From contig NC_134027.1 of the NCBI RefSeq assembly GCF_964204645.1, positions 13,176,485-13,240,484 of the forward strand: a DNA stretch of 64,000 bases, given 5' to 3'. This stretch comes from Tubulanus polymorphus (Eukaryota; Animalia; Nemertea). Position 1 is the first letter of the stretch. Every line of letters starts with the position of its first letter. Below, one piece after another: positions 228 to 31,877 of this stretch. The notes under the pieces were generated by a model. It was not told the DNA's origin. It made no database searches and worked only from the letters and a program-made list of their open reading frames with translations. A program made the translations under genes and the position numbers.

Positions 228-257
228 AAATATAAAGTTAAAATTAAGCGTATATAA

Positions 258-1385
258 ATGGGAGGTAAAAAATCTCCTAATACTAAAGAACAATATTTAA
301 GAAATTTATATTACAACCCTGAGAGTTCGGTTGCTTATTCTTCTACTAAAAATATATGGCGTAAAGTAAAACAAGATAAATTAGATAAGATAATCCCACA
401 AAATTTAGTTAAATATAAAGATATAAATGAATTTATGTTAGAACAACCAACGTATACAACACATAAAAAAATTGTTAGAAAATATAAAACTCGTAAAACT
501 ATGGTAAGTTATGTAGATCAACAGTGGCAAGGAGATTTAATTGATATGAAAAATGTTAAGAAAGATAATGATGATTATTGGTGGTTATTGAATATAATTG
601 ATATTTTTAGTCGTTATGTATGGAGCTTCCCACTTTATAGAAAAGATGCTGTACAAACATCAAATGTTTTAAGAAAATTTCTTTCGGATGATAAACTAAA
701 ACCAGAAAAAATACAATTTGATGATGGAAAAGAATTTGATAATTCACTTGTTCATGAACTCTTAGATAATCATAATATTAAATATTTTTCAACAAAATCA
801 GATAAAAAAGCAGCAGTTGTTGAACGATTTAATAGAACATTAAGAACAAGAATGTGGAAATATTTTACGGCAAATAATACTTTTAAATGGATTGATGTTT
901 TACCAAAATTGATAGAAGGATATAATAATTCTTATCATTCTTCTATTGGAATGAAACCTATTGATGCTAGAAAATCTGAAAATGCTGAAATTGTTTGGAA
1001 TAATTTATATGGAGCATTTCTTATAGATGATTTTGGTGAACCTAAATTTAAAGTTGGTCAAAATGTTAGAATTTCTAAGTATAAAAAGATATTTGATAAA
1101 GGATACGATCGAAATTTTACTAGAGAAATATATAAAATAAAAAAGGTAATAACAACAAAACCATATGTCTATAAATTAGAAGATTTAGATGGTGAAGAAG
1201 TTGATGGCTACTTTTACGAAGAAGAATTAAGTTTAACTACTGAAAATCTAGAACAAGAATATAAAATTGAAAAAGTATTAAAAACAAAAACTATTAAAAG
1301 AAAAAAATATTCTTTAGTAAAATGGGTTGGATGGCCAGATAAATTTAATGAATGGATATTATCAAGTAAAATTAAAAATATATAA
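258..1385 (+). CDS. Retroviral-like (rve/DDE) integrase with C-terminal chromodomain, Polinton type; intact
   Basis: WQGDLIDM, IDIFSRY, QFDDGKEF and VERFNRTL motifs; chromo-like LVKWVGWPDKFNEWI. Confidence 0.95.
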   Translation: MGGKKSPNTKEQYLRNLYYNPESSVAYSSTKNIWRKVKQDKLDKIIPQNLVKYKDINEFMLEQPTYTTHKKIVRKYKTRKTMVSYVDQQWQGDLIDMKNVKKDNDDYWWLLNIIDIFSRYVWSFPLYRKDAVQTSNVLRKFLSDDKLKPEKIQFDDGKEFDNSLVHELLDNHNIKYFSTKSDKKAAVVERFNRTLRTRMWKYFTANNTFKWIDVLPKLIEGYNNSYHSSIGMKPIDARKSENAEIVWNNLYGAFLIDDFGEPKFKVGQNVRISKYKKIFDKGYDRNFTREIYKIKKVITTKPYVYKLEDLDGEEVDGYFYEEELSLTTENLEQEYKIEKVLKTKTIKRKKYSLVKWVGWPDKFNEWILSSKIKNI

Positions 1386-1994
1386 ATGAATAAGGAATTA
1401 TTCATATTTGAGCCTCATAATATGTTAATTTCTGGTGTAACAAATTGTGGAAAAACGTATTTTATATTAAATTTATTAGAAACTGTTTACAAAAACTATT
1501 TTGATAATATAGTATTATTTTGTCCAACATATGAATTTAATCAAACTTATGATAGAAATATTACTAGGAATAATAAATTTATTATATTAGATCCTAAAAC
1601 AGTAAAAGAAAATTTAGATAATTGTATTAAAATAGCAATTGATATTTATAAAGGATCAAATACATTATTCATTATAGATGATTGTGCTAATCTACATGAT
1701 TCAAAAGTTAGAGAAAGTGAGTTATGCTATTTAGCTTTCTCTGGGAGACATTTTGGGATAACAACTTGGGTTTTAAATCAAAAATATAATTCAATTGTTA
1801 AAGACTTTAGAGAAAACATTAGATTTCTAGTTTTATTCTACAATAAAGATAGAAAATCAATGAAAAATGCACTTGAGGAAAATGATATTATTCCACATGA
1901 TTTACATAATGAATATATGGATGAGTTGAAAAATATTAAAAGATCAAAATTACTATTTAGATTACAACACCCATTTAAATATGAATTTATTTAA
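1386..1994 (+). CDS. A32/FtsK-like DNA packaging ATPase
   Basis: Walker A GVTNCGKT, Walker B LFIIDD, GRH and LNQ motifs. Confidence 0.9.
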   Translation: MNKELFIFEPHNMLISGVTNCGKTYFILNLLETVYKNYFDNIVLFCPTYEFNQTYDRNITRNNKFIILDPKTVKENLDNCIKIAIDIYKGSNTLFIIDDCANLHDSKVRESELCYLAFSGRHFGITTWVLNQKYNSIVKDFRENIRFLVLFYNKDRKSMKNALEENDIIPHDLHNEYMDELKNIKRSKLLFRLQHPFKYEFI

Positions 1995-2279: not shown

Positions 2280-2885
2280 ATGGTAGGTGAAAAGAAAATA
2301 AAATCTAAAAATGGTGATGTTCCAATTGAAAAAACTTTAGATGATTTAGGAATAACAGAAACAAAATTAACTCCAGATGATGGTGCTTTAAATAATGTTA
2401 CAACAAATAATAATTATGAATATTATCTTTATTGTAAACATCAATTAGAAATATTAATAGCATCTGGAAAATGTAAAAATTTTGTTAGTAAAAATTTAAC
2501 TTATAATGAATTAGACACAATGAAATCAGATGAAATTATTAGATTATTTAAGATTTATGAAGCCGCGAGAACAGCTAGAATTAATGACGCGATATCAGAA
2601 AATGTAGTAAAAGGTTATAGTAAATTATGTAATTATATACTACCAATTGAAAATGAAAATAGATTATATTCCGATTTAAAAAATGACTATTTAGTTATGA
2701 CTGAATTAAATAAATGGATTGGATATTTATCATTTCAATTAGGTGGATTTATGACATTATTATCAACTGGGGTTATAACATTTTCAAATATTGAAAGTAA
2801 AAATATTTCTATAATAAATGAGCGAAGTGAAAGAAGTGAAGGAATTAACTGTGAAGAAAAAACCGAGAACTCAGAAACAAATTGA
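2280..2885 (+). CDS. Conserved hypothetical viral protein with C-terminal hydrophobic segment
   Basis: ATG at 2280; homolog decayed at ~17760-18355 (YSDLKNDYLVMTEL.KW.GY.SFQLG). Confidence 0.7.
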   Translation: MVGEKKIKSKNGDVPIEKTLDDLGITETKLTPDDGALNNVTTNNNYEYYLYCKHQLEILIASGKCKNFVSKNLTYNELDTMKSDEIIRLFKIYEAARTARINDAISENVVKGYSKLCNYILPIENENRLYSDLKNDYLVMTELNKWIGYLSFQLGGFMTLLSTGVITFSNIESKNISIINERSERSEGINCEEKTENSETN

Positions 2886-3186
2886 ATGGTCTCGACAATT
2901 AGGAATTAAATCACAAGAATATAAAAAAGCTGTAAAAGAAAAAATAAGTAATAAAAATGTTAATAAAAATGGTGAAAATATTGTTATTTCTACTCCTTCT
3001 GATAGTAGAATATTTGATAAATATTTATATTTTACAGTTGGATTTGTAATTGTATTCATTTTGATTGGGTGTAATTGGTATAAGAAATCAAATAAAATTC
3101 ATGATATTAGTAATTCTGAACCAACTGCTATCAAAAATGAAAATACTTCTGAAATTCCAAAATTGATAATAAAAAAAATGGATTAA
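2818..3186 (+). CDS. Small single-pass membrane protein
   Basis: KKPRTQKQIEW basic motif and TM segment YLYFTVGFVIVFILIGC; homolog at 18348-18726. Confidence 0.7.
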   Translation: MSEVKEVKELTVKKKPRTQKQIEWSRQLGIKSQEYKKAVKEKISNKNVNKNGENIVISTPSDSRIFDKYLYFTVGFVIVFILIGCNWYKKSNKIHDISNSEPTAIKNENTSEIPKLIIKKMD

Positions 3187-4190: not shown

Positions 4191-4517
4191 TTAATCAACA
4201 ATTTCTAAATCATGATGACCGTCTTCATTTTTCCCATGATATATTATTTTAAATCCTACTAAATCTTTCAATTCCTCCATACTCAATGAAACCCATTTAT
4301 CGGGTAAAAGCACTTTAAATTCTCGTGATGTACTAACATTACAGTAGCTTAAATTAGCTGATACTTTCTCTCCATATTTAGTTTTTATCTTTTCTAATTT
4401 CAATATTTTATGTTCAATTTCTTTTGTAACATCAACTAACTTTTTTATTTCAAATTGTTTTTTTGCTGGTTTTATTCTGTTATTTATTGTTGCTAAGAAT
4501 GCTTTTCTATCCCCCAT
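4191..4517 (-). CDS. Small conserved viral protein (possible OB-fold ssDNA-binding protein)
   Basis: TKYGEKV...FKVLLPD...IIYHGKNEDGHHDLEI; homolog of 27301-27654, which lies downstream of pPolB; the SSB function is inference. Confidence 0.65.
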   Translation of the reverse strand: MGDRKAFLATINNRIKPAKKQFEIKKLVDVTKEIEHKILKLEKIKTKYGEKVSANLSYCNVSTSREFKVLLPDKWVSLSMEELKDLVGFKIIYHGKNEDGHHDLEIVD

Positions 4518-4627: not shown

Positions 4628-4831
4628 TTACGCGCACTCACTGTTTATGTGTGTCACAATTTTACTACGTAATATTTCTAAAATTTCAATTGTATCTTTT
4701 ATTTCTAGTGAATCAATATAATTTCTAACATTTTCCATGTAAGGTTTATCGATGTATTTTTTACAATATTGACAATAATATTGATTTTTATTGACATTAT
4801 TGTTTTCTAGTTGGTGTTCATTCTCCCCCAT
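4628..4831 (-). pseudogene. N-terminal remnant of pPolB
   Basis: YYCQYC...PYMENVRNYIDSL matches PYMEDVRNYINSL in 30968-31654 and the relic at ~36935. Confidence 0.75.
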
Positions 4832-5029: not shown

Positions 5030-6250
5030 TTACAAACCAGTATTAAGTAGTACAGATATAATATCTCTTCTCTGTCGCCTATTTACAGATTCTCCTTCCA
5101 TTTCACATAACACTGGTACATTATTCTCCTGCATGTTATGCGAACCCTCTTGCATATAATCCTCAAATTCTCCGTCAGTTAACACGCAAATGTTGTGAAG
5201 TACAAAACAACTACTAATGAAGTTCATCATCCGTTCCATGTCGCTCATATCTATATATTTCAAACGTCGGAATCGGCCTTCTGAAATACCAAAAGTATGT
5301 TCAAGTATGAAGGGGGTAATCACTGCTCAGAGAATACGCAGAATCTCCAAGTAAATGACTGTTAAGAGGAAATGTACTTTCTTGGTTATCAGTACTTTCG
5401 ATTGCATGCCATAAGGGAGAATTTCGAAAAACACGAGAATCATGGGTTGATCAAGGCCAACCAGTATAAACGTCAATAAATTGATATTCACTATCACAGA
5501 TAGCACATACGTTTATCGAATAAAACTTTTTTCGATTGATGTATGCTTCTGGACTCTTGACTGGTGCCTTTATTGGTATGTGCGTGCCGTCCACAGCGCC
5601 TAAAACTTTCGGGAATCCTTGAAGTCCTTCGAAACCCGCAAATATTTCTTTCGCATGTTCCAATGATGGCCACTTTATAACCTTTGGCATGACATGTCTA
5701 ACCACACAGGCAGATACCTTACCTGAAAAAGAAAATACAACAAATGATAAACAATTATAAATTTTCCATCAAAACTAGTTTCAAACGACTCACCGATAAT
5801 TTTATGCACGGATGCTTCACACACGCCAAACATGTCAGCAATATGCATGAGTGTTGCCTGTGTTCATGCATAATATAAGTAAACAAGTGGTTGTTTTTCC
5901 ACGGGTATATTTCGTGTACCACTTTCGATGATGTACGGTCCAACATACTCCAAAACCCTATCAAATGTTTCACGAGTCATTCTAAAACGTAGCCTAAAGT
6001 CCTCTGGCAGATATCTACTTACTGTAACGTCACAGTAATTTGTAATCCGATTTACAGTTCTCCTCTTTTTGTGTTTAACACTCTCAAAAACATTTATCAG
6101 AACACAAGCTGGGGTCGATGACGAACGTTTTAGAAGCGTATTTTGATAACGGTTTGAACGAATACTGCTATTGGTCACAGAACGAACAGAGGAAGACAAT
6201 TCAGCTATCGACAAAACGCAGATGATTTTCTTCTCGCTATCATCGGCCAT
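5030..6250 (-). pseudogene. PIF/Harbinger (HARBI1-like) DDE transposase, intron-containing and degraded
   Basis: FRMTRETF, VLGAVDGTHIPI, YINRKKFYSINV, FIDVYTGWP, LLGDSAY, EHTFG, CFVLHNIC motifs. Confidence 0.9.
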
Positions 6251-9492: not shown

Positions 9493-10613
9493 TTGGTGGA
9501 AAATCTAAATATTTCATTAAGAAATGTGGAGGATACTGTAGTGTTTGTATACATATTTACTAGGCCCAAGTCTAAGTCGGGTAAAACTGGAAAGTTTGTG
9601 AGGACTCTACGAAACAATGATGCAAGCGACGATGATTATACATTTACAGTTAGTGATAACGTAAACAACATCGGTGAAAGCTCGTGTTGCACTGATGTAA
9701 TTATAGGTAATGTCCGTACCACAGTGTTAGTGGATAGCGGTGCTACATGCAATGTCATCGATGAAGAAACGTGGAAAATGTTAAAATCGAAAAAGGTTGT
9801 GTGCTCCAAGCAGGTCAAAGGTAGTTTCAAATTGTATACCTACGGTATTGAAAAATCGATACCGACGATCGGTAAATTTTGGGCAACGGTCCAAGTAGGC
9901 AATGCATCTGTTGAAGATGTACCGTTTGTTGTCGTAGCTGGCAATGGGCGACCATTGCTCGGCAAAATAACGTCCGAGAAGTTAGGAATTTTAAAAGTAG
10001 GACCTGCCTGTGTAAACAATCTTGTGAGTGGAACAGTGGAATCCGAATTTCCGGAACTGTTTACCGGCCTAGGTAAACTGAAGGGTTACCAAGCCCGCGT
10101 ACATGTTGATAAGTCAGTTACTCCGGTCGCGCAAAAAGCGAGACGTATACCATTTTCTCTGCGAGATAAATTAGAGAGAAAGTTGGCCGATATGGAGGAG
10201 ATGGATATATTGGAAAAAGTCGATGGTCCAACGACATGGGCTAGTCCGATTGTAGTCGCACCGAAAAAGGGCGGCGATATTCGAGTTTGCTTAGATATGC
10301 GTGAAGCAAACGAAGCAATTAAACGAGAAATGTTTCAAATCCCAACCGCTGATGAGATCATAGAGGAAATGAACGGTAGCACAGTGTTCAGTAAATAGAC
10401 CTCAAATGGGGTTTTCATCAGATCGAACTTGATGAAGAATCGCGAGATATTACCACATTCGTCACTCATTGTGGAACTTATCGTTATGAAAGTTTAATGT
10501 TCGGTATCTCCTGTGCGCCTGAACTGTATCAAAGAATAATATCTCAGGTGATCTCCGGTATTAAAGGTGCGAGAAACATTCCAGATGACATAATCATACA
10601 TGCGGTCAACGAT
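9493..10613 (+). pseudogene. Ty3/Gypsy pol, part 1 (aspartic protease and RT N-terminal half)
   Basis: LVDSGAT protease; WASPIVVAPKKGGDIRVCLDMR, DLKWGFHQI, LMFGISCAPE, PDDIII; breaks at the Polinton-type terminus at 10614. Confidence 0.9.
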
Positions 10614-11244
10614 AGTAATAGGGATAATAGGCTTTCAGGCCAAAGGTCGAAGGGTCGAGCCCGTAAAAAATGAAAATAACAATAATTTACAGTTGAATTA
10701 GTCGCGCACACTCCTAATTCAACTGGAAATGAACATAATTTACATGAATTTCATATATTTTAAAATCATTTATACGTTAATTACAAAAGTGTGAGTAAAG
10801 TGTGAGTAATAATTCATATTTTAACAGATTTCGAGTAAAAATATAAGTAAAATAAATGGATAACTAAAAGAGTATAAAAGTGTGAGTAAAGTGTGAGTGA
10901 AAAAGTTTATATTTTAAACATATTTCAATATTTATATTTGTATGAGTTAGATTTTTAAACGTTAAAAGTGTCAGTAAGGTGTGATTGAAATAATTCATAT
11001 TTAAAACATTGAATATTTATATTTGAATGAGTTTTAATAAAAATTTTGTTATAAAAATGAAGAAAGAAGAAGAAGAACCCAACTTTAAAATCGAAATCAA
11101 TGAAACCAATAAATCATTTTCACAGTTTAACATTAAAAATTATATTTCAGCAACAAATTTAGTGTCCGCAAGACATTATAAAATTGAAAATATTACTGTA
11201 ATTAATCAAATATTATCAAATGAAACATATTTATATGAAACATT

Positions 11245-11362
11245 ACAGTTAAAGCTATTGTTTTTTTATTTAAATCTTTTTGATTTCTATTCGCGCTATT
11301 GGTTAACAAGAATTGACTAGAAATCAAAAAGATTTAAATAAAGAAACAATAGCTTTAACTGT
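11245..11362. repeat. 45-bp near-perfect inverted repeat (hairpin)
   Basis: ACAGTTAAAGCTATTG...GATTTCTA / TAGAAATC...CAATAGCTTTAACTGT with a ~28-nt spacer. Confidence 0.85.
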
Positions 11363-11850
11363 TAGTATCACTCTTGTATTATTTCATTGTTTCTCTTATT
11401 GAATAAGCCAACTAACTAATATCACTCTTGTATTATCCTAGTCAAATGTAAAGAATTTACAATATCATACTTGAATGAATTAAAACATAAATTACTTCTG
11501 TTACTTCATTTTCAGAAATAAAGCATAATATGTATTTAATACATTATTACGTATTTAATATGCCTAAGTAATAATTTTGAACCTTTATTATTCTTTAATT
11601 TATTCATATATTAGTTGAAAAAATAAAAATAAATTGGTTGAAAATTGTATAAAATAAAAGTTAATAAAATAGGCGTTTTAGGTATTAGGGTATCTAATAG
11701 GGTATCTAATACATAGGTAGGTATTAGGGTATCTAATAGGGTATCTAATACATTGATACCTCAACCCCCTTTTTTATTAACTTTTATTTTCATACATTTC
11801 AACAAATATATTTTATATTTTCAGCTAATTTAACAGTCGATTTCTTATTT

Positions 11851-12129
11851 TTATTCATATAATTTTTCATCAAGTTCATGAATATACATGTGATTTCTCA
11901 AACTCTTTTTATTTTTATATCTTTTATTGCATATTTCACAGCATTTAATATTATTCAATCTATCTGAAATATAATTCATATTTTCTATTAATTCATAGAA
12001 TTGTTTTATAGTATAAACTGAGAATGAAAATAAACCTGAAATCATAATAATTGATTTAATATTCTGTTGATTTTTATATATTAGATGTAATATTTCTAAT
12101 ACCTTATTTTCACTCATTTTTATAGTCAA
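11851..12129 (-). CDS. Small protein with hydrophobic segment and C2H2 zinc finger
   Basis: CEICNKRYKNKKSLRNHMYIH. Confidence 0.55.
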   Translation of the reverse strand: MTIKMSENKVLEILHLIYKNQQNIKSIIMISGLFSFSVYTIKQFYELIENMNYISDRLNNIKCCEICNKRYKNKKSLRNHMYIHELDEKLYE

Positions 12130-12144
12130 AATATATAGAATAAA

Positions 12145-12375
12145 TTAAATTAAAAGATGTTGTTTTAAATCATTTAAATCATTAACTTTTTTATTGTTAT
12201 TCTTTCTGTGGTTGTTTCCATTTAACTTCTTTAATTTCTTGCTCAATTTTATATTTTCATTAATCAAATCCTTACTGATATTTTCATAATAAAAGAAAAG
12301 CGCAGCCAATATTAATCCGCCTGCAACTAAATAATGTTTCAAATCACTTTTCCCAGTTGGGATGAAACCATCCAT
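12145..12375 (-). CDS. Small membrane protein with basic coiled-coil tail
   Basis: YLVAGGLILAALFFYY; preceded by AATTTTTCTCTTAAATAAATG. Confidence 0.55.
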   Translation of the reverse strand: MDGFIPTGKSDLKHYLVAGGLILAALFFYYENISKDLINENIKLSKKLKKLNGNNHRKNNNKKVNDLNDLKQHLLI

Positions 12376-12489
12376 TTATTTAAGAGAAAAATTAAACAGT
12401 TTATAAAATATTTGCTAGTTTTTAATTAAATATTTTATAATCATTTTAAAAATATTAAACTTTTAAATGATTAAATCAAATAACAATTA

Positions 12490-13115
12490 AATTACAGCCA
12501 AACAATTTAACATTTCAACAGTCAAACAATTTATCATTTCAACTGTCAAAAAATTTATCATTTCAACTGTCAAACAATTTATCATTTCAACTGTCAAACA
12601 ATTTATCATTTCAACTGTCAAACAATTTATCATTTCAACTGTCGAACAATTTATCATTTCAACAGTCGAACAATTTATCATTTCAACTGTCAAGCAATTT
12701 ATCATTTCAACTGTCAAACAATTAATCATTTTAACTGTCAAACAATTTAACATTTCAACTGTCAAACAATTTATCATTTCAACTGTCTTATCATTTCAAC
12801 AGTCGAACAATTTATCATTTCAACAGTCAAACAATTTATCATTTCAACTGTCAAACAATTTATCATTTCAACTGTCAAACAATTTATCATTTTAACTGTC
12901 AAACAATTTATCATTTCGGCTGTCAAACAATTTATCATTTTAACTGTCAAACAATTTATCATTTCGGCTGTCAAACAATTTATCATTTCAACTGTCAAAC
13001 AATTTATCATTTCAACTGTCAAACAATTTATCATTTCAACGGTCAAGCAATTTAACATTTCAACAGTCAAACAATTTATCATTTCAACTGTCAAACAATT
13101 TATCATTTTAACAGT
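12490..13115. repeat. 24-bp minisatellite (CAACTGTCAAACAATTTATCATTT) x ~26
   Basis: Head-to-tail units without spacers. Confidence 0.95.
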
Positions 13116-13168
13116 CTATTAGATATTTAAATCATTTAACTCAATTCAATAATTATAATGTAGAATTG

Positions 13169-13819: not shown

Positions 13820-14204
13820 TCAAATATAAATATTCAATGTTTTAAATATGAATTATTTCAATCACACTTTACTGACACTTTTAATGTTTAAAAATCTAAC
13901 TCATACAAATATAAATATTGAAATATGTTTAAAATATAAACTTTTTCACTCACACTTTACTCACACTTTTATACTCTTTTAGTTATCCATTTATTTTCCT
14001 TATATTTTTACTCGAAATCTGTTAAAATATGAATTATTACTCACACTTTACTCACACTTTTGTAATTAACGTATAAATGATTTTAAAATATATGAAATTC
14101 ATGTAAATTATGTTCATTTCCAGTTGAATTAGGAGTGTGCGCGACTAATTCAACTGTAAATTATTGTTATTTTCATTTTTTACGAGCTCGACCCTTCGAC
14201 CTTT

Positions 14205-18726: not shown

Positions 18727-19824
18727 AATAAGAGGAAAAAAGAACAATATTTAAGAGAGTTATATTATAACCCAGAAAGTGAAGCATCATATTCTAACGT
18801 TTCAGAATTATGGAATAAAATTAAATCTGATAATGAAAATGGTAATATAAAATATAGTGAACTAAGGTTATGGTTACAAAATCAACCAACATATCAAATC
18901 CACAAGAAAATGGATAAAACTTATTTAACAAGAAAAGTTATGGTTTCATATATTGATCAACAATGGCAAGCAGATCTAATTGACATGAAGAACTTAGAAG
19001 AATACAACAAAGGATATTTCTGGATATTAAATGTTATAGACATATTCAGTCGATACGCATGGTCAATTCCAATCAAAAATAAAACTGGTATAGAAGTTAC
19101 AAATGCTTTTAAATCAATATTCAAAGAAGATATTCCAGATATGATACAATTTGATGAAGGTAAGGAATTTTATAACAAACATTTCAAAAAAGCTATTATC
19201 TGATAACGATGTAAAATATTTTTCAACACATTCAGATAAAAAAGCATCTATTATAGAAAGATTTAATGAAACATTGAAAACTAGAATGTGGAAATATTTT
19301 ACTGCTAATGAAACATATAAATATATCGATGTGTTAGATGATTTAGTGAAAGGTTATAATAATTCTAAACATAGTTCTATAAATATGAAACCTATACAAG
19401 CTAGAAAAGAAGATAATTCAGAAATAGTTTGGAATAATTTATATGGCGCGTTTGTTACACATGATTTCGGTGAACCTAAATTTAAAATTGGACAACACGT
19501 AAGAATATCTAAATATAGAAAAACATTTTATAAAGGTTATACTCCTAATTTTACTGAAGAAATATTCAAGATTAAAAAGATAATATTAACTAAACCATTT
19601 GTTTATAAACTAGAAGATCTAAAAGATGAAGAAATATTAGGTTATTTCTATGAACAAGAATTATCACTTGTACCAAATCCAGATGAAATAGAATACAAAA
19701 TAGAAAAAGTATTGAAATCAAAAACTCTTAAAGGAAAAAAGTATTCTTTGGTGAAATATAAAGGATACGATGATAAATTTAATGAATGGATTTGATTTTA
19801 TCTAGTAAAATTAAAAGAATAAAT
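18718..19824 (+). pseudogene. Polinton integrase with chromodomain (frameshifted)
   Basis: EQYLRELYYNPES, WQADLIDM, IDIFSRY, QFDEGKEF, IERFNETL; frameshift near 19190. Confidence 0.9.
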
Positions 19825-20434
19825 GAATAAAGATTTATTTATATTTGAACCGCATAATATGTTAGTTACTGGTGTAACCAATTGTGGTAAAACACATTTC
19901 ATATTAGATTTGTTAGAAACTGTTTATAAGAATCATTTTGATAACATAATATTATTTTGTCCTACTTATGAAATGAATAAAACATATAATAGAGATATAG
20001 TTGAGATGAAAAAGTTTATTATATTAAATCCTAAAACAGTAAAAGAAAATTTAGATAATTGTATAAAGGTAGCAATTGATACTTATAAAGGATCAAATAC
20101 ATTATTCATTATAGATGATTGTGCTAATCTACATGATTCAAAAGTGAGAGAAAGTGAGTTATGTTATCTAGCTTTCTCTGGGAGACATTTTGGGATAACA
20201 ACATGGGTCTTAAATCAAAAATATAATTCAATTGTTAAAGACTTTAGGGAGAATATAAGACTTCTAGTTTTATTCTACAATAAAGATAGAAAATCTATGC
20301 AACAATCATTGGAAGAAAATCAAATTATACCTACTGAATTACATGATGAATATATGAATAAATTAAAGAATAATAAAGGTTCAAAATTATTACTGAGACT
20401 ACAATTTCCATATGAATATAAATTTATAAAATAA
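19823..20434 (+). CDS. A32/FtsK-like packaging ATPase; intact
   Basis: GVTNCGKT, LFIIDD; very similar to 1386-1994. Confidence 0.9.
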   Translation: MNKDLFIFEPHNMLVTGVTNCGKTHFILDLLETVYKNHFDNIILFCPTYEMNKTYNRDIVEMKKFIILNPKTVKENLDNCIKVAIDTYKGSNTLFIIDDCANLHDSKVRESELCYLAFSGRHFGITTWVLNQKYNSIVKDFRENIRLLVLFYNKDRKSMQQSLEENQIIPTELHDEYMNKLKNNKGSKLLLRLQFPYEYKFIK

Positions 20435-20447
20435 CTATTTGTATACC

Positions 20448-20800
20448 TATGTATTAGATACCCTAATACCGGATACCCCATTAGATACCCTAATACCTGA
20501 TACCCTATTAGATACCTTGAATACTTAAAACCCCCTTTATTAAAATAAATATTATTTATACAATTTTCAACCAATTTATTTTTATTTTTTCAACTAATAT
20601 ATGAATAAGTTTGAAAATAATAAAGGTTATTTATTATTACTGAGGTTTCAATATAAATTTTAAAAAGAAATATAATTTAAGGTATTTTCAAATAATATGT
20701 ATTAGATATGTATTAGATATGTATCAGATACCCTATTAGATACCTTAAATACTTAAAACCCCTTTTTTATTTACTATTATTTTATACAATTTTCAACTAA
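20448..20800. repeat. TATTAGATACCC-type short repeats between convergent genes
   Basis: Repeated motif; the block recurs inverted at ~11570-11830 in the mini-element. Confidence 0.75.
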
Positions 20801-20829
20801 TATTATTATTTGAGTTAAATATAATTAAT

Positions 20830-21683
20830 ATCTTAATCACTTTCATCATCACTCTCCAATTCACTATCAGACCCTAACAATTTATTCAAATTCTCTACAT
20901 AATTTTCTTGTTCAAATTCTCTATTATTTTTATACTTATTCTTCACTTTTTTACCGCATCATCAATAGTTGTTTCATTGTTATGCTTATTCATCCAATCA
21001 AATTTATCATTATTTTATACTTTATGTTTCATAGAATCTTTATTAGTGTTTGCTCCTAATATTTCATTTACAGTGTTTGATCCTAATATTTCATTAGCAT
21101 CGGTTAGATCTAATTCATCTTTATTAGGTGTTGCTAATAATAAATCTTCATATATTTTTTCACCATTTACTTTTTGATTTGAAACAAACTTTGTAACATA
21201 TCTAAATGGGTGTTCTATAAATTCTTTTAAAACAACACGTTCTATAAAATTATTTATATGTACCCTTGTATTCATATGTTTATTCCAATTTGATGTAGCG
21301 TTTGAAAATTCACTTTTACAATATCCACAATAATTTCTATTTTCACTAACATTTCATATTATTTCATTATTAGATGTAGAAGGTATTACATTATTAGATG
21401 TAGTAGGTATTACATTATTAGATGTAGAAGGTATTACATTATTAGATGTAGTAGGTATTACATTATTAGATGTAGAAGGTATTACATTATTATCAATTAC
21501 ATTACTTAAATTATCAACAACACTACTTTTATTATTATCGATTTCTATTAGTTTAGTTTTATAGATTTTGAAAATAGGATCAAATATCAAAGCTATATTA
21601 CAAGGTATTACATAATATAAACCACCATTATTTTCATGTGTATCGATGTATGGAATATGTTTATATACTTTACCTCCTTCCAT
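20830..21683 (-). pseudogene. Hypothetical gene with NNVIP(S/T)TS 24-bp repeats, frameshifted
   Basis: ORFs 21354-21683 and 21015-21275; about 5 repeat units at 21368-21490. Confidence 0.5.
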
Positions 21684-21715
21684 TTATTATATACATTTTT
21701 ATTAAAGTTTAAATT

Positions 21716-22962
21716 TTAATACATAACACTATTTAATTGAGAATTTACAATATTTAATTGCGCGTCAGATATAATATAAATGTGCATTTTAAAATTTTTG
21801 ATTCCTTTATTCTTTGTCATGAATAATTGTATTCCATCTTTTGTGTTCTGTAATTTTTTTCCAGAACCATGTAATGAATTATCCTCTGTTGTTCTAAAAT
21901 CTAACCATAATGCATATTTATTACCGGTATGATAATCAATTGATTAATATTACAATTTTCAGATGATTTTACTTTTTCATCCATAAAATGTTTTCTAATT
22001 TCTGGCCATTGATCAATCATTCTCATTCCTTGACAAAATATTTTATTTGCTATTCCTTCGATAGTTATTTCTACTTTTGTTATTTCAGGATTATAATAAT
22101 TATCAACATTTATTGCGCTATTAGAATATGTTGCAATGGTAAAAAATATCAATATACCTTTAATAGATCTTCTTGGGAAGTTAATATTCTCATTAATTAT
22201 TTCGTCATTTGCATTAATAGTTACGGTTTTAAATTTATCAATATAATCAGATAATAATGAAAATCCTTGATTGTATTGAGTTTGAATTATACTTGCAATA
22301 TTTTCATCAGTTACTGTATCATATTCTAAACATATATTCGATAATTTATAACTCATAACTTTATTAACGCTAGATATTACAATTTCATTTACAGGAGCAA
22401 ATGTTATTTCGAATATAACGTCTTCTTGAATTGCGTATTTATATAAAGGTGCATTGTTATTTATCAATTCAAAGTCTAATGGAAGTTTATATTTGCTTCC
22501 ATATATACTTTTTATCAATTTATCTATAGAATTAGTTAATATTGCATTATGTGCTTCTGATCTTAATTTATTTTGGTTTTCTGATTGGATTCCTTGAAAT
22601 ATCATATTATTTCTATTTTCTTTAGTTAACCATAAATCTTTATAATGCATAAATAAATTATAATCATCTAATGAGAAAACTGTTTCTGGACCAATCTTTA
22701 TAGTTAATTTTTTCATCAAATATCTTCCAACATTATCGACAACATAATTATTATTATTACCGGTTACTTTTATATCGGCTGATAAATAAATACTATTTGG
22801 AACATAAAAAGTATTTTGTGTTAATCGAGGGATTCTAACATATAAAGTTTCATCAGGATTAATATTAGAAGGGTTATGAGTAATTATATGATGTGATCTT
22901 TCTGCTTTAATAGCATTAGATATTCTATGATTCTTAGAAGGATTGATATAACTCCCACTCAT
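21716..22962 (-). CDS. Putative major capsid protein (double jelly-roll), one frameshift near 21930
   Basis: ~415 codons, beta-rich, at the end of the structural cluster; C-terminus matches 3-227; the fold is inferred from size and context. Confidence 0.65.
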
Positions 22963-22982
22963 TTATTTAACAAAAAAATTAA

Positions 22983-24456
22983 TTATTTATTTTTTGATAT
23001 CATATTTACTAATCCAAAAATAATTGCACTTACAACTGTAATTAAAAATAAAATAATACGTTCAGCAGCAAAGTTAATAATGTTTCCTGCAGATTTCAAT
23101 ATGAAACCAACAATTGATGCAATAATTCCTGGTAATGCTGCAGCAGATTTTTTAGATAGTTCCCATAAATATTTTGCTAATTTCTTTAAACCATCCTCAA
23201 CTTTATCTTGTATAGAATTATTATCTGGGGGTTTATCTGGTTTATTTGGAGTAGGAGTAGATTTCAGTGAATTTGATATAGCTAAACCAATTGTTGTAAA
23301 TAACATAGTTACAGCTGTTAGAATTGAAAGAATTGTTATTCCTTCAAACTTAAACAATAATTTTATTCTATCTTTTAGTGATATGTCAGAATTTGGTTTT
23401 AGTATTAACTCTTTAACAACAACTTTTAATCTATCAATACAATAATCATATGATTTTAATAATAATTTCATTTTTTCTTTCTGAAATTCTATGTTATATT
23501 CTAAATCATCAATTTCTTTTTCTAAATATGCATTTCTTAAAATATGCATTTTTTTTAAATTCAATGTCTTCAATAACTATAAATTCTCTATCTAATTTTA
23601 ATTGTTCTAATTCTTTTCTGGTGTCAAATAATTTATTTTCTAAAGGTTTAATTTTATTATATCTTATATGTTTTTCGCGCGCAATTTTATCAGCTTCATC
23701 TCGTATACTTATTATTTCTCTAATTGTTTTTTTAGAAAACATACTTAAAACTTCTATTTCTTGATCTGTTGAATCAAGTAATCCCTTCGGTAAAAGTTTT
23801 TCAGTTTGAACTTCAGTGTTTGATTTAAGTTTACTAGTTTTGGAAGTTTTATTCTGTTCAGAAGTTGTTTCTGTTTCTGGATTTTCTTTGATTGTTTCAA
23901 ATAATTTATTAATTCTTTGTTTAAATACTCTTTTATTTTGATTTATTTCTTCTTGTGTTACATCTTCTATTTCATTACTATTTCTTATTCTCTTAATTCT
24001 AGATGAGTCAAACTTAAGCAAAGTTGATATTGCTATTATTTTTTCTTCTTTTTTATTAGAGATATTAATATAATAATCCGAATCATCTTTCAACCTATAA
24101 TAATATTCACCATCTAAAAACTTTAATTCTTTTACTAAAAGTCTGGCGCCTCTATCATTTATATTATATCCAGAATCTTTAAATACATCTTGAAACTTAT
24201 ACATAAATTCATAATTTTCTATATTTTCTCTTTCTAAACCTGGGTCTAAATTTTCAATAGGTATTCTCGATCTAGTTCTTCTATCATGTTCTTCTGTTGA
24301 TGGGGCTTTAGAACCACTCTCTGCTAAATTAGAATTATATGCTGATTCATCATCATTATCAATATTATTATCAGCAGTCATATAATCATCATCAATATAT
24401 CCTTCATTATTATTTCCCATGCCTTCCATTTCATAATCTTCTACACCTTCTGTCAT
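22983..24456 (-). CDS. Large coiled-coil protein with C-terminal transmembrane segments (frameshift near 23550)
   Basis: Acidic N-terminus, coiled coil, GITILSILTAVTMLFTTIGLAI, LPGIIASIVGFIL and IILFLITVVSAIIFGLV. Confidence 0.65.
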
Positions 24457-24469
24457 TTACATAATAAAA

Positions 24470-25791
24470 AAATTTAAAATATAATATTCCTCCGATTACA
24501 ATTCCTATACAAGTTAAAGCTAATTTAGTATTTTCATGGGATTTATTATCATCATTTAGTTTAATTATATCATGTTGAATATTATCAGTTTTTATATCTT
24601 CTGATGTATTGTAATCTTTTATTTTAGAATCATTATTTAATTCAATATTATTAGTTTTAGTTTCTGTTGATTGAATGTTTTTTTATTTTTTTCACCTTCC
24701 ATTAATTTTGGAGCAGTGGTTATCTTTTTATTTATATCATTTAATCCAAATGAATTATTTATTGTTGCAGTTTTAATTAGATTATTATAACCAATTATAT
24801 TTCCCATCTTTAATACTAAATCAATAGAAATAATTAATAGATTAGGGCCTATACAATAATTTAATCTAATATGTGATTTATCTAAATGATTTTGATATCT
24901 TACAATGTTTTCCGGAATCGATCTATTTTTATCATTATGAATTGAATCTTCAAATAATACTTTGAATTGTTTCTGCGCATCGAATGAAGTGTTATCATTT
25001 CCAATTATTGGGGATCTTGTTTCAACTTGCGCGCCTAAAATACAAATTAAATAATTTCTAATAGATTGATTTATTCTTTGTATACCAGCTTTAGTAAAAC
25101 CTTCACTATTTTCTAAAATGAAATTAACCCAACCATTATTGTTTTGTTGTTGTATATTATTATAATATTTTGGTAATTCATTCCAATTTAGTGTTCTTAT
25201 ATCTGAATTTGTCATTATTTTTCCAAATTCTTTAGTATATAATATTCCTAATCCACCCATTGTTCCAATTTTTGCTCTAAAATCTTTATTTGAATTAATA
25301 TTAAATTCATTACATATTTTATAAAACTTAGAAAAATTAATATTATTATTCAATTCTTTAAAATATTTTGAACCTGGTAAAGGACATTCTAATTCATCTA
25401 ATATTAATTTTATTTGAAAATAAGTATGAAATCTAAAAAGTGATAACATCAATGGTAAACTTGGTTTGTTTAAATGATCATTCCAACTAATTCCACATCC
25501 TGTTGTTGCGCAATAAACAGCAAAATTTAATTGGTTCTGCCAATACTTCATATTAGATTTTAATAACCATTGTTTTGCCTCATTTAAATTTTTGAAATTA
25601 ATTGTATACACATGAAATATATTTTCCATCTTTACATGAAAATTATTACTTTCAGTAACATAAATATATAAATCAATTAATGAATCTAAAACTTCATTTC
25701 TATATGTAATATCTTTATTAAAATCTATTGCTGGAATATTATATTTAATTGATTTATTATATTGGAAAGCTTTTGGAAAACTATCTGCCAT
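24470..25791 (-). CDS. Conserved viral protein with C-terminal membrane anchor (frameshift near 24670)
   Basis: YWQNQLNFAVYCATTGCGIS...; continuation reads HENTKLALTCIGIVIGGILYF. Confidence 0.6.
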
Positions 25792-25932
25792 TTATATAAT
25801 TAAAAAATTAATAATTTATTAATTCTTTTAATAATTTATCTTGTTCTTCAACTGTTATATGACCATTTAAATTGCCGATCCTATAATAGTTATAACTGCA
25901 GAAGCCATTTATTTAGTAAAATAATTATGTAT

Positions 25933-26154
25933 TTATATGGGAGGAATATATTTTTGTTTTTCTAAATAATCAATAGTTAAATTAGATAAAGTAACAGCTA
26001 ATGTTAATTTTAAAATATCATTGATATCAAATCTATCAACATTAACACTTCCCATTTTAAATACTTTTTTTAATACCATTGAATAACCAACAGTTCCAAC
26101 TGATAGTAATGCTCCATTATATAATCCAGTTATTATCCACTTATTATCACTCAT
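25933..26154 (-). CDS. Small hydrophobic/membrane protein
   Basis: 73 aa with two hydrophobic helices; T-tract/TAAATG start. Confidence 0.6.
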   Translation of the reverse strand: MSDNKWIITGLYNGALLSVGTVGYSMVLKKVFKMGSVNVDRFDINDILKLTLAVTLSNLTIDYLEKQKYIPPI

Positions 26155-26526
26155 TTATTTATCAAAAAAATTACTATCTTCAAAATATTGAGTTATCTTA
26201 TTTACGATTAATTCAACATTTATTTCATTACTAGTTTCATTTGTATATATTTCAATTATTATTTTTTTAATAACATCGACGATAAAATCTTCATCTAATT
26301 CATAAAATCTTAAAGATTCTCTAATTAAATTAGTAATCTTTTCTACATTTAAAGTTTCTTTATCTATTGTTGTTTCAAACTCAAATGTTGTTTCATTTGA
26401 AAATGCAATATTTTTAATCGTGTAATTACATCATTAACGTTAAATTTCATTTCTTTCTCACGTTTTAAATCAAATCCAAAACATAAACTCGGTCCAACAG
26501 TTATATTCATTTATATAGTGAAAAAA

Positions 26527-27286
26527 TTACTCTTTACATCTTATAACTAATTCATATATCACAGGAAAGTTAATTAAATCAATTAAATAACCATTATGAT
26601 TTCTTATTTCTAATTTAAAATTATTAAAATGTGGAATACAAGGTTTGAAATCACATTCAGCTAAATTATAATTTATTTGAGTTCCAAATTGTTTAACATT
26701 TTCTAGCGGTAAAATATTTAGTAAACTAGAACTACAAATTGTTTCTTTAATTGCTTGGAAAGTTTTTGTAGGCTCGATTAAATTGCAATAAATATAAAAG
26801 TGTGTAAAAGGTATTATATTTGAATTACCATCTACGTTTCCTGTAACAGTATCTGGTACAATTCCTAACAGTTTTGCTATAGGTTTTTTTACCATAAATG
26901 CATGTTGACTTTCATCATATACCTTTATTTTAATTTTATTTGTGCCTCATTTTTTATAAATCTAATTAAAAATTTATCATCTCTTCTAATTTTCAACCGT
27001 GCTCTACGATTAATTTCTTGAGCTCATGTTTCTAAATTATATAATCCTGGTTTTAAAATTAGATGAAACCATTTATCTACATTTCTAATATGAATTAAAA
27101 CAGTATTATCGTCAATAGTTTTATCCGATATATTATAAAAAGAATTACATAAACTTATATTTACTAATTTCAAATCTACATAATTCTTAAATTCTCTATC
27201 TAACTGAACTAGTAAATTATGAGATTTATAATTTGTAACTTTTCTTGAATCAACAAATTATAACTGTATTCTTTTAATTCCGCCAT
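26527..27286 (-). pseudogene. Putative minor capsid (penton, single jelly-roll) protein, frameshifted
   Basis: LCNSFYNIS..., LKPGLYN, FYIYCNLI, LLNILPL, FKLEIRNHNGYLIDLINFPVIYELVIR pattern resembling Polinton/virophage minor capsid proteins. Confidence 0.55.
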
Positions 27287-27300
27287 TTATTTTACATATT

Positions 27301-27654
27301 TTATTCGAAATCTATTTCATGGTGCCCTTTTTCATTCTTACCTTTGTATACGAAATAGAAATCTCCAGAACATAATTCTTCTAGATCTTCACTTGATAAT
27401 CTATGAAATCTATCTGGTAAATATGTTCTGAATTTATATGTATTTCCTTTTAATCCTTCATATTCTAAGTGTATAACTAATTTATCTCCATATTTGTTAG
27501 TAACTGTATCAATATTTGTAATTAGATATTTCTTATGGATTGTTAATTCTTTTAACTTCTTAAATTTATAATCTACTGATTTGACATTTGAAGTATCTTT
27601 TATTCTATCTAGAAATGATTTGTTGTTCTCACTGTGTGCTTGTTTACTCTCCAT
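27301..27654 (-). CDS. Small conserved viral protein (possible ssDNA-binding protein)
   Basis: Homolog of 4191-4517; immediately downstream of pPolB. Confidence 0.65.
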   Translation of the reverse strand: MESKQAHSENNKSFLDRIKDTSNVKSVDYKFKKLKELTIHKKYLITNIDTVTNKYGDKLVIHLEYEGLKGNTYKFRTYLPDRFHRLSSEDLEELCSGDFYFVYKGKNEKGHHEIDFE

Positions 27655-27683
27655 TTTAATAACATATTTTTATTAAAATTTGA

Positions 27684-30600
27684 TTAACACGTTAGAATTC
27701 TTTTCATTATCTCGTTCTCTTTTGTTTCTTCTCTTTTAAATTTTAAGTTTTCATCTAAATTACAACCATAAGCAACTGTATGAATTCCATCATCCAGAAT
27801 ATATCTTTTATCATCAAATGGGTTTAGACTTATCTTTTCAATTTCTTCAATAAACATTTCATGATCTTCAGATCTTAAACATCTCATTTTATGTTTTCTA
27901 ACTTCTTCATTGAATATACAATTGATGTAATCTTTGAAATGAATATTCTTTTCTACTACACTTTTGGTTATTCCTTTTAACTTTTTAACTTCATGTTCTT
28001 TAGTTTTATATGAATACATTTTAGATACACCTATGAACTCTATCATTTCTTCACCACCTAATTCATCCTTGAATTTACCGGGAACTTTTTATCATCATTG
28101 CTAAACAATTCATGATCTTTAGGATAATTACTGAAATCAAAATGATGTTTTAATGTTTTTAAATCATCAGTTATGTTATCAGTTTTTATCTTTAATATGT
28201 AAGAATCTGTATCAAAGTATAGAATTTCTATATGTTTTTCTCCAAAAAGTGGTTGTAATACGTTATAATAGAATTCATACATCAATAGCTTTGATATTTC
28301 TAAAACTGAAGCACCAACATAAATTGGTTTATTAAATTTCATAGAAGTTCTTCTCAATTTAACTGCGGCTAAATTTTCATCAAATATTCTGTTACCAATG
28401 AACTTAGGATATGATTGTAAATGCCTTATCCTTTTACCATTACTAACTAACTCAATATTATTTCTATTTCTAATATTTTCACAAGTCTTACCATAGAATG
28501 CATTATTCATTAACTTGAAGAAATCTTTCTCGAAATCAGTTTTAGCTTCAGTTCTCTGTTTGGTGTTAAAATCTATATATTTTTCTAACCACTTAGATTG
28601 ACTAAATGAAATATATCTATGTACTTTTTTTAGAACCATTCCTTGTTTTAGATAAAACTTTAACATTCTATAATGTACTACATAATTATATTTATCTTCT
28701 TGAGTTACCATTAACTTTTCTGTATGAATATGATTTTCGGGTATAATTCTTTTTTGATAATTTGATAATTCTTCATGAGTTACAGTTTTATGTTCGGGAC
28801 AGTATGCTAGATTTCTAGATTTAAATTTAATATGTTCAGGATATTCTAAATCTACAACAAAGAAGTAACCAGTATCTGAATCATCTGCAATATCTAGAAT
28901 TCTTTTCTTCCAATAAAATTTATCATTATTTTCATTCTGTAAAACTTCAGTTAATTCAAATACTCTATAAGGTTGTGGTTCCATCATTGCCCAACCATAC
29001 AAATTATTTGCATCTATATATAATAACTTATATCCGGGGTTATCATTTACATTGAAATATCTATCACCTAATACACCTGAAACTCCTCCTCTTATAGATT
29101 TTTCAAATAATAGTAATTGATCTATATTTGTTAACAAATCCATTTTTATATCTGTAAATTTTAATCCACAATCCCATTTTAAACCTGATTTGAATAACAA
29201 TGACAAGGATCAATGTTAAAATATTTTAGGTTTACATCTCTAAACCTTTCGAATATATCAGTTAACAATAATACATCTGATTTTAGATATGAATCTACTA
29301 ATTGCCCATGATTTTCTATTTTGAAATGATTCCAAATATTCAATGTTCTATTATATACTTCATCTTTAACATATTCATTTTTTAATTCATCATAGAATTG
29401 TTCTTTTATTAATTCGGTTATGTTAAAATCATTATGATTTTTATAGAAAGAATATGGAATTGCGCCTTTATATCTCATTAATTGGAAATCATCATTATTT
29501 GGGTAGTGTTGTTTTAATATTTTCAATTCATCATCAACTAATGATTTTGATAAGTTATCTAATGAACTATTTAAAAATCTATATGAATCTATAAATCTTA
29601 GGCAACCAAATTGGAATGATATATAATTCGCAGATGTTTTAGCTAACATTCTAAATTTATAAGTTGGTATTTTATCTTTTGATCTATTTGAATTTAATCT
29701 TTCTATTTCATTACTGATTTCTTCTATTTTATGGCATAACTGTTTGATAAATAATTGTGCATCATATCCTGATAGATTATGAAATATAACTGGTACAAAG
29801 TTAATTTTCTTAGCTTGTAAGTTACAATTCTCATGTGCAGCGCCTCTAAACTTTCCGTTCAAATGATCATGGTCTCTCACTTTTTTATCTTTATAATTAA
29901 ATATCTTTTCACAATAATAACATTTATCTGAAAACACAAATTCTTCTTTATCTTCTTCTGTCATAATTATTTCTTTATTTGTATTCAATAATTTACTAAA
30001 TCTAATTTCATATTCAATTAATAAGTCACAAAAATGATTGATAACATTTTCATTTCTATAATCATAATATTCACTTTCAATTAGTTCTGGATAATCAGAT
30101 TTAATATATAACCCGAAAGCAGCAGCTGATTGATGAATCTTTTTAATTGTATTTGTTTTTGGTGGTTCATCTGAAAAATCATTTTCATTAGAATTTAATT
30201 TCTTTCTTTTATAATATATTTCTTTTCTATCTTGATCAGTTAATTCTTTATTTAATGATTCAAAATCTCCATATATTACAAATGGTACTTAATTTTTGTA
30301 ATCATATTTTTTGAATTCTAATATTTTATCCTTTTCATTTGGTAAAACTAATTTCCAATAATCATGATTTTCACATAATTGTTTATGATTTAATAATGTA
30401 ATTTCATTACTGAATTTATGTAAACATTTTCTACATAGATATATTTTATTATGGTGATCACTTTCTGTTCTAAAGAATAAATCTATTTGTTTAATCCACA
30501 TATAATGATTCTCATAATATAGTATATCTATAACATCATTTGAATCATAATCTTTTGATAGATATAAAGGTTCTAATGTATAATGTTTTATGTTGTTACC

Positions 30601-31654
30601 TTTTGTATTTGGTAATTTGATTAAATCAAATACATAATTATTATCTCTTTCAATCTTTGGGATCTTTTTAATTATAACAGGATACTTATCTATCTTATAA
30701 TTATTTTCAAATGGTTTATAATGAGTTAATCTACAAATATTATAAGTTGCAGGATGTAAACAACTTATTATAGCCCATAGAAAACATTTATCATCTTCAT
30801 TTTGTACATTTATTACAGCATTAGTTTTAAATGGTAGTTTGATATAACTCGATGCTTCGATATCTGGTTCTTTATAATATGATACATTATTTTCATCAAT
30901 TGGTTTTGATTTAGTTAACTTATTATATTTTGTGTTATAAACATGTAAAGTCATAAATATTATTTCATCAAATATTATAACATTTATCTAATTTATCATC
31001 TATATGTTGTTTAGATATAATATGTTGTGAATGAGAATTTATATTATATATTGGTTTATCTTCAGATTTCATAAACTTTACTTTAGAAGATATACTTATT
31101 TTAGGATATTCAACATCTGTAATTATTTTTATTATTTCTTTCATATTTTCTAAATGTTTTTTATTTTCTTCTAATGTTTTTCCTTTATGAAATTTAAACT
31201 CGATAGCTGCTGGACCAATATCACTTTTAAATGCTTCTGTTATCTCTATATCTTTTTTATTATCTAATGAATTAATATAATTTCTTACATCTTCCATGTA
31301 TGGTCTTTTATTGTTTAATTTATTTTTTATGCTTTTAATTGTCTTCTGTTTCTTATCATTATCTTTATCAAAATAATCTTCACCTAAAAAAACATTATTC
31401 ATATTTCTAATATGACTTTTAGATTTTAAATGTTCTTTATAATATCTTTTATCACTGAATGATTGATTACATGTATCACATTTGTATATTTCTTTTTCAT
31501 TCTTTAATTCATCTAATTTAGATTCTAATATATCATCTTTATATTCTAGTTTCAATTTATTCTCTAAATGTGTTTTAGTTTTATTGTGTCTTGCTTTTTG
31601 GGATTTATCTATATTGATATTACATGTTGGACAGTAGTACTTATTTGCTTCCAT
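27684..31654 (-). pseudogene. Protein-primed family B DNA polymerase (pPolB) with N-terminal C2H2 fingers and Endonuclease VII-like insert; at least 5 frame breaks
   Basis: YGDFES, FHNLSGYD, RDHDHLNGKFRGAAHENCN, YIDANNLYGWAM, KLMNNAFYGK, YFDTDS. Confidence 0.93.
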
Positions 31655-31877
31655 TTTAATACTAAATTTTTTTTTTAAATTGATTTTAGAAGTTCAATGA
31701 TTTATATCATGTATTATTTCAATCACACTTTACTAACACTTTTAATGTTTAAAAACCTAACTCATACAAATATGAATATTGAAATAATGTTTAAAATATA
31801 TCTATCTATATTGAATAATCTGTCAATTTAAATGTTATTTATGTAAATTATGTTTATATATATATGATTATTTTAAG

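Follow-up and report, generated by a model that had tools for sequence, protein, structure and literature searches.

A poxvirus-register promoter signature at the gene starts of an integrating Polinton lineage in Tubulanus polymorphus suggests dependence on a cytoplasmic helper virus

Results and Discussion

The 64,000-nucleotide stretch of the Tubulanus polymorphus genome analyzed here (contig NC_134027.1, positions 13,176,485 to 13,240,484; hereafter the window) holds, in its positions 1-32,070, decayed copies of one Polinton/Maverick family, with an rve integrase, an A32 ATPase and a DNA polymerase B of the protein-primed type (pPolB) recognized by Pfam and a double jelly-roll (DJR) capsid protein recognized by its fold. 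The motif TAAATG, in which the start codon is fused to a TAAA box, and the tract that precedes it form a predicted promoter signature that is real, extends across a clade of this integrating Polinton lineage and stands in the register of poxvirus promoters. The lineage likely depends for its transcription, in a reading that we hold with moderate confidence, on a pox-like cytoplasmic virus that co-infects the cell and lends its RNA polymerase, and we are fairly confident that some cytoplasmic helper virus, of whatever kind, transcribes the element. A first-pass annotation of this DNA had proposed endogenized, virophage-like parasites of a pox-like virus; the motif, its conservation in the clade and its vaccinia register speak for that proposal, while the helper itself is what we infer from them.

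Gene starts in the window

All 17 starts at which the first-pass annotation had placed TAAATG do read TAAATG (6 on the + strand, 11 on the - strand), the start at 2280 reads TACATG, those at 31654, 27654 and 16171 read TAAAATG, and the T-tracts quoted upstream are present as described. As a list of promoters, these sites fare less well. The TAAATG at 17236 lies inside a broken HNH-type gene (the reading frame aligns to residues 22-83 of the 15566 product and to residues 111-161 of a protein from relative L004) and is no true start; a duplication has left one and the same stretch upstream of 4517 and of 4831, so that 4831 is not an independent promoter; 258, 1386 and 2818 on the one hand and 18348 and 19823 on the other belong to two copies of one family; and the upstream contexts of pPolB (31654) and of the gene at 15159 correspond to the terminal inverted repeat, one arm each. 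For the products at 12375 and 16171, no homologue match was found.

The curated set for the AT-rich element stretches, from which 4831, 12375, 16171 and 17236 are excluded, comprises 18 starts: for 14, blastp matches the N-terminus to that of a relative or of a sister copy, and four (24456, 25908, 27286, 31654) were retained on family assignment or by-eye likeness. TAAATG is present at 14 of these 18 starts, compared with 47 of 903 other ATGs (Fisher p 1.7e-14). A T-tract (at least six T among the seven positions -16 to -10) precedes 8/18 curated starts and 0/47 non-start TAAATG, and a T- or A-tract precedes 18/18 compared with 4/47; since the sequences counted here also served to set the tract windows, the independent test of the tract is the clade comparison described below. 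When starts are taken automatically, from N-terminal homology only, TAAATG is found at 7/10, compared with 21 of 227 short spurious open reading frames (ORFs; p 1.5e-5), a second background that was used because an ATG right behind TAA is always the first ATG. The motif is thus far above background, non-start ATGs included.

Conservation of the motif among relatives

Relatives were drawn from 80 metagenome loci fetched with a capsid alignment. Among loci at 49-75% identity, all nine with a full capsid start open the capsid gene on TAAATG, at GC contents of 0.20-0.44, and across 11 loci of the window's capsid clade TAAATG is found at 29 of 32 homology-defined starts. The three exceptions retain TAAA at most 12 nt away and out of frame, so that TAAA is present in 32/32. 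In side lineages, which were grouped after the motif had been seen, all 10 homology-defined starts carry TAAATG; in the remaining relatives the count is 1/135, with 0/15 in eight AT-rich loci. The ATG is preceded by TAA at 39 of 42 starts and never by TAG or TGA. On a quick tree of 44 capsids, from which loci without a 160-residue capsid ORF were left out, the window's capsid clade has an SH-aLRT value of 98, and the other half of the tree (21 rows) is without any TAAATG start. A viral contig collection searched with capsid queries yielded nothing; a capsid search of genome contigs yielded 2 loci, and an ATPase scan 1 distant locus with TAAATG at the ATPase only.

The motif is no Kozak effect, in agreement with the earlier remark that T at -3 is a poor context: relatives without it mostly have a purine at this position (A in 30/37 AT-rich starts; purine in 71/98 GC-rich starts). 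Nor does overlap of stop and start codons account for it, since the TAA terminates the upstream frame at only 3 of 59 starts (in the window it ends a long open frame only at 1386 and 26154, of 26 listed starts). The retention of TAAA in the exceptions, the absence of TAG and TGA and the rarity of overlap together argue for a transcription initiator rather than for translation context or gene coupling.

Among other lineages, L113, L014, L038 and L019-L020 have TAAA with longer A-runs before the ATG, some with T-tracts (longer-A-run TAAA in 18/37 AT-rich starts compared with 74/610), which might represent the codes of other helpers or simply an A-rich Kozak context. The distant Polinton L117 (719-8742), the ATPase of which is ~20-30% identical, has eight listed ORFs of which seven, pPolB among them, start on TAAATG, an integrase with an N-terminal extension that appears protease-like by eye, and a palindrome with 87-nt arms between two divergent genes. 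The baculovirus late motif was considered as a further candidate and rejected (5/32 clade starts, 47/413 spurious ones).

The upstream core and its poxvirus register

In the comparison of 47 clade starts, window excluded, with 65 non-start TAAATG, T is enriched at -13 (0.79 versus 0.32) and at -12 (0.87 versus 0.28), A is enriched at -18 (0.79 versus 0.18), and at least six T at -16 to -10 are found in 21/47 compared with 2/65. The core is a T-tract ending at about -10 or an A-tract near -18, at a fixed distance from the ATG. Seven divergent gene pairs are found in relatives, four of them with 28-30 nt between the ATGs, where the T-tract of one gene is the A-tract of the other; putative promoters lie within upstream genes and in gaps of 14-30 nt between divergent ATGs.

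These observations bear on the reading in which the motif is no promoter at all and follows from base composition, from the coupling of stop and start, from an in-frame stop that guards the ATG or from a T-run that acts as a terminator. The element is indeed AT-rich (GC 0.21-0.26), TAA is its commonest stop, and 1386 and the ATPase start of relative L001 are true overlaps; but equally AT-rich relatives score 0/15, the motif is kept at GC 0.44, overlap is confined to the 3/59 starts noted above, TAG and TGA do not take the place of TAA, and out-of-frame TAAAT variants exist. The T-run, moreover, is present also at divergent starts, and its last T falls at -9 to -12 in 23/26 cases, whereas measured from upstream stops it is scattered from -23 to +95, so that it is locked to the ATG and is no terminator. 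On these sequence controls the non-promoter reading is largely refuted, and we give it a very small probability.

The register of the core is that described for poxviruses. As described in PMC11980589, a T is conserved in vaccinia late promoters at 10 nt before TAAAT, equivalent to -13, and in intermediate promoters a T follows an AT-rich block that lies 15-19 nt upstream; the viral polymerase is described as reading TAAA directly, one helical turn from the AT-rich core (PMC12917281). Of eight fetched poxvirus loci, two have TAAATG at 10/24 ORFs each, and the two contain divergent pairs with one shared core at 30 and 24 nt. The ten TAAATG starts of one of them, L119, have a T peak at -14 to -12 and an A peak at -19 to -16, the same register as in the Polintons, albeit with small n and a profile correlation of r 0.41. 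The likeness to vaccinia accordingly comprises the TAAA(T)G over the start codon, the T at -13 with flanking Ts, the A-rich block at about -19 to -15, a single core between divergent genes 24-30 nt apart, promoters inside neighboring genes and a packaging ATPase in the A-core class. Compared with vaccinia, the present element is a 17-kb integrating element in which no polymerase was detected and the promoter activity of which is predicted; in comparison with the poxvirus stretches, which include early genes, 29/32 rather than 10/24 starts conform; and the capsid gene is mostly T-core here while vaccinia D13L is intermediate.

A helper from another group of cytoplasmic large DNA viruses with a similar initiator, whether asfarvirus-like, egovirus-like or of an unknown lineage, is a minor possibility that shares part of this evidence. 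TATA is present at 14/32 clade starts and TATATA, which is described as a late motif of the African swine fever virus type (PMC11788076), at 6/32, compared with 69/413 and 5/413 spurious starts; an IMG/VR locus that is Imitervirales-like by eye has TAAATG at 4/9 starts; and no shared poxvirus gene was found among the proteins tested. However, the invariant part of the signature is TAAA (32/32 in the clade and 10/10 in the side lineages, where TATATA is 0/10), and the T at -13 and the shared divergent cores have poxvirus geometry.

Transcription by host RNA polymerase II from an unusual TATA-less initiator, with near-leaderless mRNAs and a poxvirus likeness that has arisen by convergence in AT-rich DNA, is improbable in our estimation. 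The element is integrated in nuclear DNA in many copies, transcripts of adintoviruses have been reported from a fish, no helper being named, and CpG is mildly depleted in all groups, all of which speak for this reading; but U at -3 makes a poor start when the mRNA has no leader, the putative promoters sit inside upstream genes and within the 14-30 nt between divergent ATGs, and AATAAA occurs once per ~240-280 nt of coding strand and is not avoided (55 versus 51 expected in the window, 127 versus 137 in the clade). This lack of avoidance weakly fits cytoplasmic transcription.

Proposed transcription by a helper virus

In the mechanism that we propose for a pox-like helper, its post-replicative machinery would bind the core near -18 to -10 and start at TAAA, where slippage would add a 5' poly(A) leader, as has been described for vaccinia and for yeast virus-like elements (VLEs; PMC6211774). 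Such a leader would give A instead of U at -3 of the mRNA, and would thereby explain the tolerated poor Kozak context. The element would act in a virus factory that is already established, as does mavirus with the giant virus CroV, so that most of its genes, pPolB included, would be post-replicative; a single core would drive both genes of a head-to-head pair, and integration by the rve integrase would keep the element in the host between infections. The deoxynucleoside kinase of relative L001 (10343-10981, - strand; PF01712, E 1.7e-31), which stands behind a putative 7-T TAAATG promoter, is counted in favor of helper dependence.

Alternatively, a promoter factor (TBP-like or late-factor-like) or a polymerase might be encoded by the element itself or by a sister element in the same genome, with no need of an outside virus, a reading to which we assign a low probability. 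The pPolB-bearing VLEs of yeast do use a TAAAN initiator, 5' poly(A) leaders and a polymerase of their own (PMC6211774), the motif-less relative L014 encodes a VLTF3-like protein (388-933, - strand; PF04947, E 5.5e-8), and several conserved element proteins are without assigned function. Against this, TBP, TFIIB, polymerase subunits and VLTF gave no Pfam match in the ORFs of the window or the clade, tblastn and one fold search likewise detected no transcription apparatus, a 17-kb element with the present genes has no room for a two-subunit polymerase, and the motif takes in the ATG and does not stand ~30 nt upstream of it, with TATAAA at -40 to -17 in 0/32.

Several observations weigh against a pox-like helper. 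The helper genome was not found, in that 0/32 promoter-pattern IMG/VR loci have TAAATG at most starts (the best reach 4/9 and 2/4), and a tblastn search with the ORFs of two poxvirus loci shows no gene shared with the element at E 0.01. The TAAATG trait is patchy on the quick capsid tree and recurs in the distant L117; TAAA is short and AT-rich, and TATA is also found in 14/32 clade starts, as in asfarvirus late promoters; the correlation of the L119 and Polinton profiles reaches its r of only 0.41 at shifts of 0 and +1 and is negative at 3-4 (n=10); and the core class switches among orthologues (integrase, pPolB neighbor, HNH gene, 26510). The AATAAA test is weak because AT-rich motif-less relatives are only mildly depleted (61 versus 74), and T5NT, the relative frequency of which is 0.41 compared with 0.58 for T5N followed by A, C or G, is not specifically avoided, T5 runs being depleted generally (0.52).

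Core classes and timing

The two-tier expression program suggested by the first-pass annotation is in part upheld, since two core types do exist, with capsid starts T-core in 7/9 relatives and in the window and ATPase starts A-core in 3/4 relatives and in both window copies; the switching of class among orthologues stands against a fixed assignment, as does the intermediate class of vaccinia D13L. Vaccinia A32L, also intermediate, agrees with the A-core of the ATPase. Genes with a T-core (late-like) and an A-core (intermediate-like) may differ in timing. TAAAATG as the mark of a second tier did not hold up. The pPolB start reads TAAATG in L117 and follows a T-tract in L116, and on these two contexts an early tier for pPolB was dropped. 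No early-type motif was found before a gene start.

Relation to known systems

Mimicry of helper promoters is established for mavirus and for endogenous mavirus-like elements (EMALEs), according to 10.1101/068312 and 10.1101/2025.10.09.676808 (also 10.64898/2026.07.28.741278). The window element has in common with these partners of CroV a pPolB, an rve integrase, a DJR capsid, host integration and a large-virus late motif at its starts; the CroV partners are virophages of protists that use a different motif and have an identified helper, whereas the present element is of Maverick-Polinton type and its helper is deduced from promoters. Polinton-like viruses in entomopoxvirus occlusion bodies have been proposed as poxvirus hyperparasites (PMC11296320), in the main text of which the words promoter, motif and TAAA were not found. 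Compared by description, they have a Polinton-like gene set as well but possess a cysteine protease, lack rve and reside in occlusion bodies (PMC11296320). Polintoviricetes share with the window element pPolB, rve, the A32 ATPase, the DJR capsid, AG..CT terminal repeats and many copies (as described in PMC8502044 and 10.64898/2026.06.19.733378), while no protease was detected in the present element, and its long terminal palindrome and clade-wide pox-type start motif set it apart.

The yeast elements pGKL1/2 are not known to have a capsid or an integrase. These elements are linear, their TAAAN initiator resembles that of poxviruses, and they are described as encoding their own polymerase and capping enzyme, unlike the window element (PMC6211774). 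Egoviruses have been tied to parabasalid polintons through gene transfer (10.1101/2024.03.23.586382), and a 2026 preprint states that Polinton virions have not been observed.

In the literature searched (main texts rather than supplements, with few subscription papers), no report of the TAAATG motif in Polintons was found, and the word promoter was not found in the main text of PMC8502044 and of two 2026 preprints. The signature is a fresh instance of a known helper-mimicry strategy, and the motif is, in that literature, apparently unreported in Polintons. A clade-wide promoter code of poxvirus type bears on the transcription of animal Polintons and on their possible need of a helper: it makes helper dependence testable, gives a sequence rule by which Polintons can be sorted by likely helper, and predicts pox-like viruses in hosts for which none is known. 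If true, it would extend the virophage lifestyle from protists to animal germ lines. More tentatively, widespread animal Polintons could be endogenous poxvirus virophages, their promoters a fingerprint of undiscovered invertebrate pox-like viruses, with clades tuned to different helpers and integrated copies that may act as an inducible defense, a wider picture that we hold somewhat doubtful.

Element architecture and gene inventory

Copy A spans the window start to ~4,900 and copy B ~17.2 kb; one end of each copy is truncated, the left end of copy B being cut at the palindrome tip. The terminal inverted repeats carry AG..CT ends, as in Polintons. Polintons are generally flanked by 6-bp target-site duplications. 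The features, with their predicted start contexts, are as follows.

258-1385 (+): rve integrase with chromodomain, copy A; TAAATG, A-type core (PF00665, E 2.5e-10)
1386-1994 (+): packaging ATPase of the A32 type, copy A; A-type core within the integrase gene, the stop codon of which is overlapped by the TAAATG (PF04665, E 2.7e-13)
2280-2885 (+): conserved gene, function not assigned; full T-tract, TACATG (orthologues in L001, L002, L004 and L016 read TAAATG)
2818-3186 (+): conserved small gene; TAAATG, A-type core
4191-4517 (-): small gene, homologue of 27654, candidate SSB-like by position; TAAATG, T-type core
4628-4831 (-): duplicate of the 4517 upstream stretch, leading to a pPolB fragment
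10614-14204 (no strand): non-autonomous derivative of 3.6 kb, bearing inverted repeats of 592 bp (99%), within a Gypsy-like pol relic; contains the 12375 TAAATG start (T-type core)
14858-32067 (no strand): copy B, terminal inverted repeats at both bounds, within a Gypsy-like relic; multicopy family
15159-15832 (+): HNH-type gene in two frames; CAAATG, A-type core, start context in the terminal repeat
17236-17451 (+): internal fragment of a second HNH-type gene; TAAATG not a gene start
18348-18452 (+): broken 2818 orthologue; TAAATG, A-type core
18910-19795 (+): broken rve integrase, copy B (PF00665)
19823-20434 (+): A32-like ATPase, copy B; TAAATG, A-type core, no stop/start overlap (PF04665, E 1.5e-11)
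21015-21683 (-): broken gene bearing a zinc finger; TAAATG, A-type core
21901-22962 (-): major capsid protein, double jelly-roll, shortened by a break; TAAATG, 7-T tract
22983-24456 (-): conserved gene with hydrophobic stretches, two frames; TAAATG, 7-T tract
24637-25791 (-): conserved helical protein; TAAATG, T-tract
25864-25908 (-): 5' remnant of a conserved small gene, the bulk of which is gone; TAAATG, T-tract
25933-26154 (-): conserved small hydrophobic gene; TAAATG, 7-T tract
26364-26510 (-): broken small gene; TAAATG, T-tract (A-type core in the L001 orthologue)
26527-27286 (-): broken gene, candidate minor-capsid-like by size and position; TAAATG, A-type core
27301-27654 (-): small gene adjoining pPolB; TAAAATG, A-type core
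27684-31654 (-): pPolB, broken into five open pieces; TAAAATG, long A-tract, start context in the terminal repeat (PF03175, E 1.9e-6, one piece)
31874-32067 (no strand): imperfect terminal palindrome with 92-nt arms at the element end, diverse flanks in host reads

The capsid model (pLDDT 74) matches the PBCV-1 capsid (E 7.5e-8) and vaccinia D13, and its fold matches are mostly capsids of the type found in nucleocytoplasmic large DNA viruses (NCLDV), with a virophage capsid first at rank 46. The pPolB pieces cluster with polymerases of 1,208 residues. A model of the 25791 family gave no fold match, and an Atlas search with two conserved element proteins no usable match; neither excludes anything. 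No Pfam match to a cysteine protease was found in the ORFs of the window or the clade; Polinton group 2 is described as variable in protease.

Copy number and the terminal palindrome

Reads of one genomic set under the same species label give a depth of mostly 300-800 over the element body, ~1,500-1,800 at the pPolB start and 6-8 just outside, and 1,555 reads exit the right element end into dissimilar flanks. Of the runs on record as RNA none contained the stretch, and one further run presumed to be RNA had no contig on it, which is evidence in neither direction. If the flank is single-copy, of which we are unsure, the family has tens to hundreds of copies.

The terminal palindrome (~190 nt) has a predicted fold of -83 kcal/mol (z -22), and its sequence is present also at 10614-10745, 14101-14204 and 14858-14952. 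Arm-specific mismatches recur between copies, the loop orientation, viewed from outside, is identical at all three ends holding it, and no flip/flop pair was seen among the window copies. The window terminus matched none of the fetched relative loci. Terminal palindromes have been tied mostly to elements without pPolB, according to 10.64898/2026.07.28.741278; here, by comparison, the palindrome accompanies pPolB. Matches to the poxvirus early core AAAANTGAAAA, the consensus of which was taken from PMC5294985, a review of NCLDV promoter motifs, are found in the palindrome arms at 10666 and 31930 (+) and at 14180, 14900 and 32013 (-), the first ATG being over 250 nt away.

Other features of the window

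Further AT-rich pPolB fragments of the same family are present at 36700-37700 and 46200-47000, and a 24-nt tandem array (12400-13170) lies within the non-autonomous derivative, which, as is copy B, is nested in Gypsy pol. Harbinger-type DDE pieces and Gypsy-like relics are found at 5030-6250, 9778-10673, 14565-14857, 32070-33111 and 55432-59435. At 44041-44946 (-), two abutting ORFs are joined by a TAAATG stop/start, the second with a weak GIY-YIG match, and this pair is probably an unrelated retroelement.

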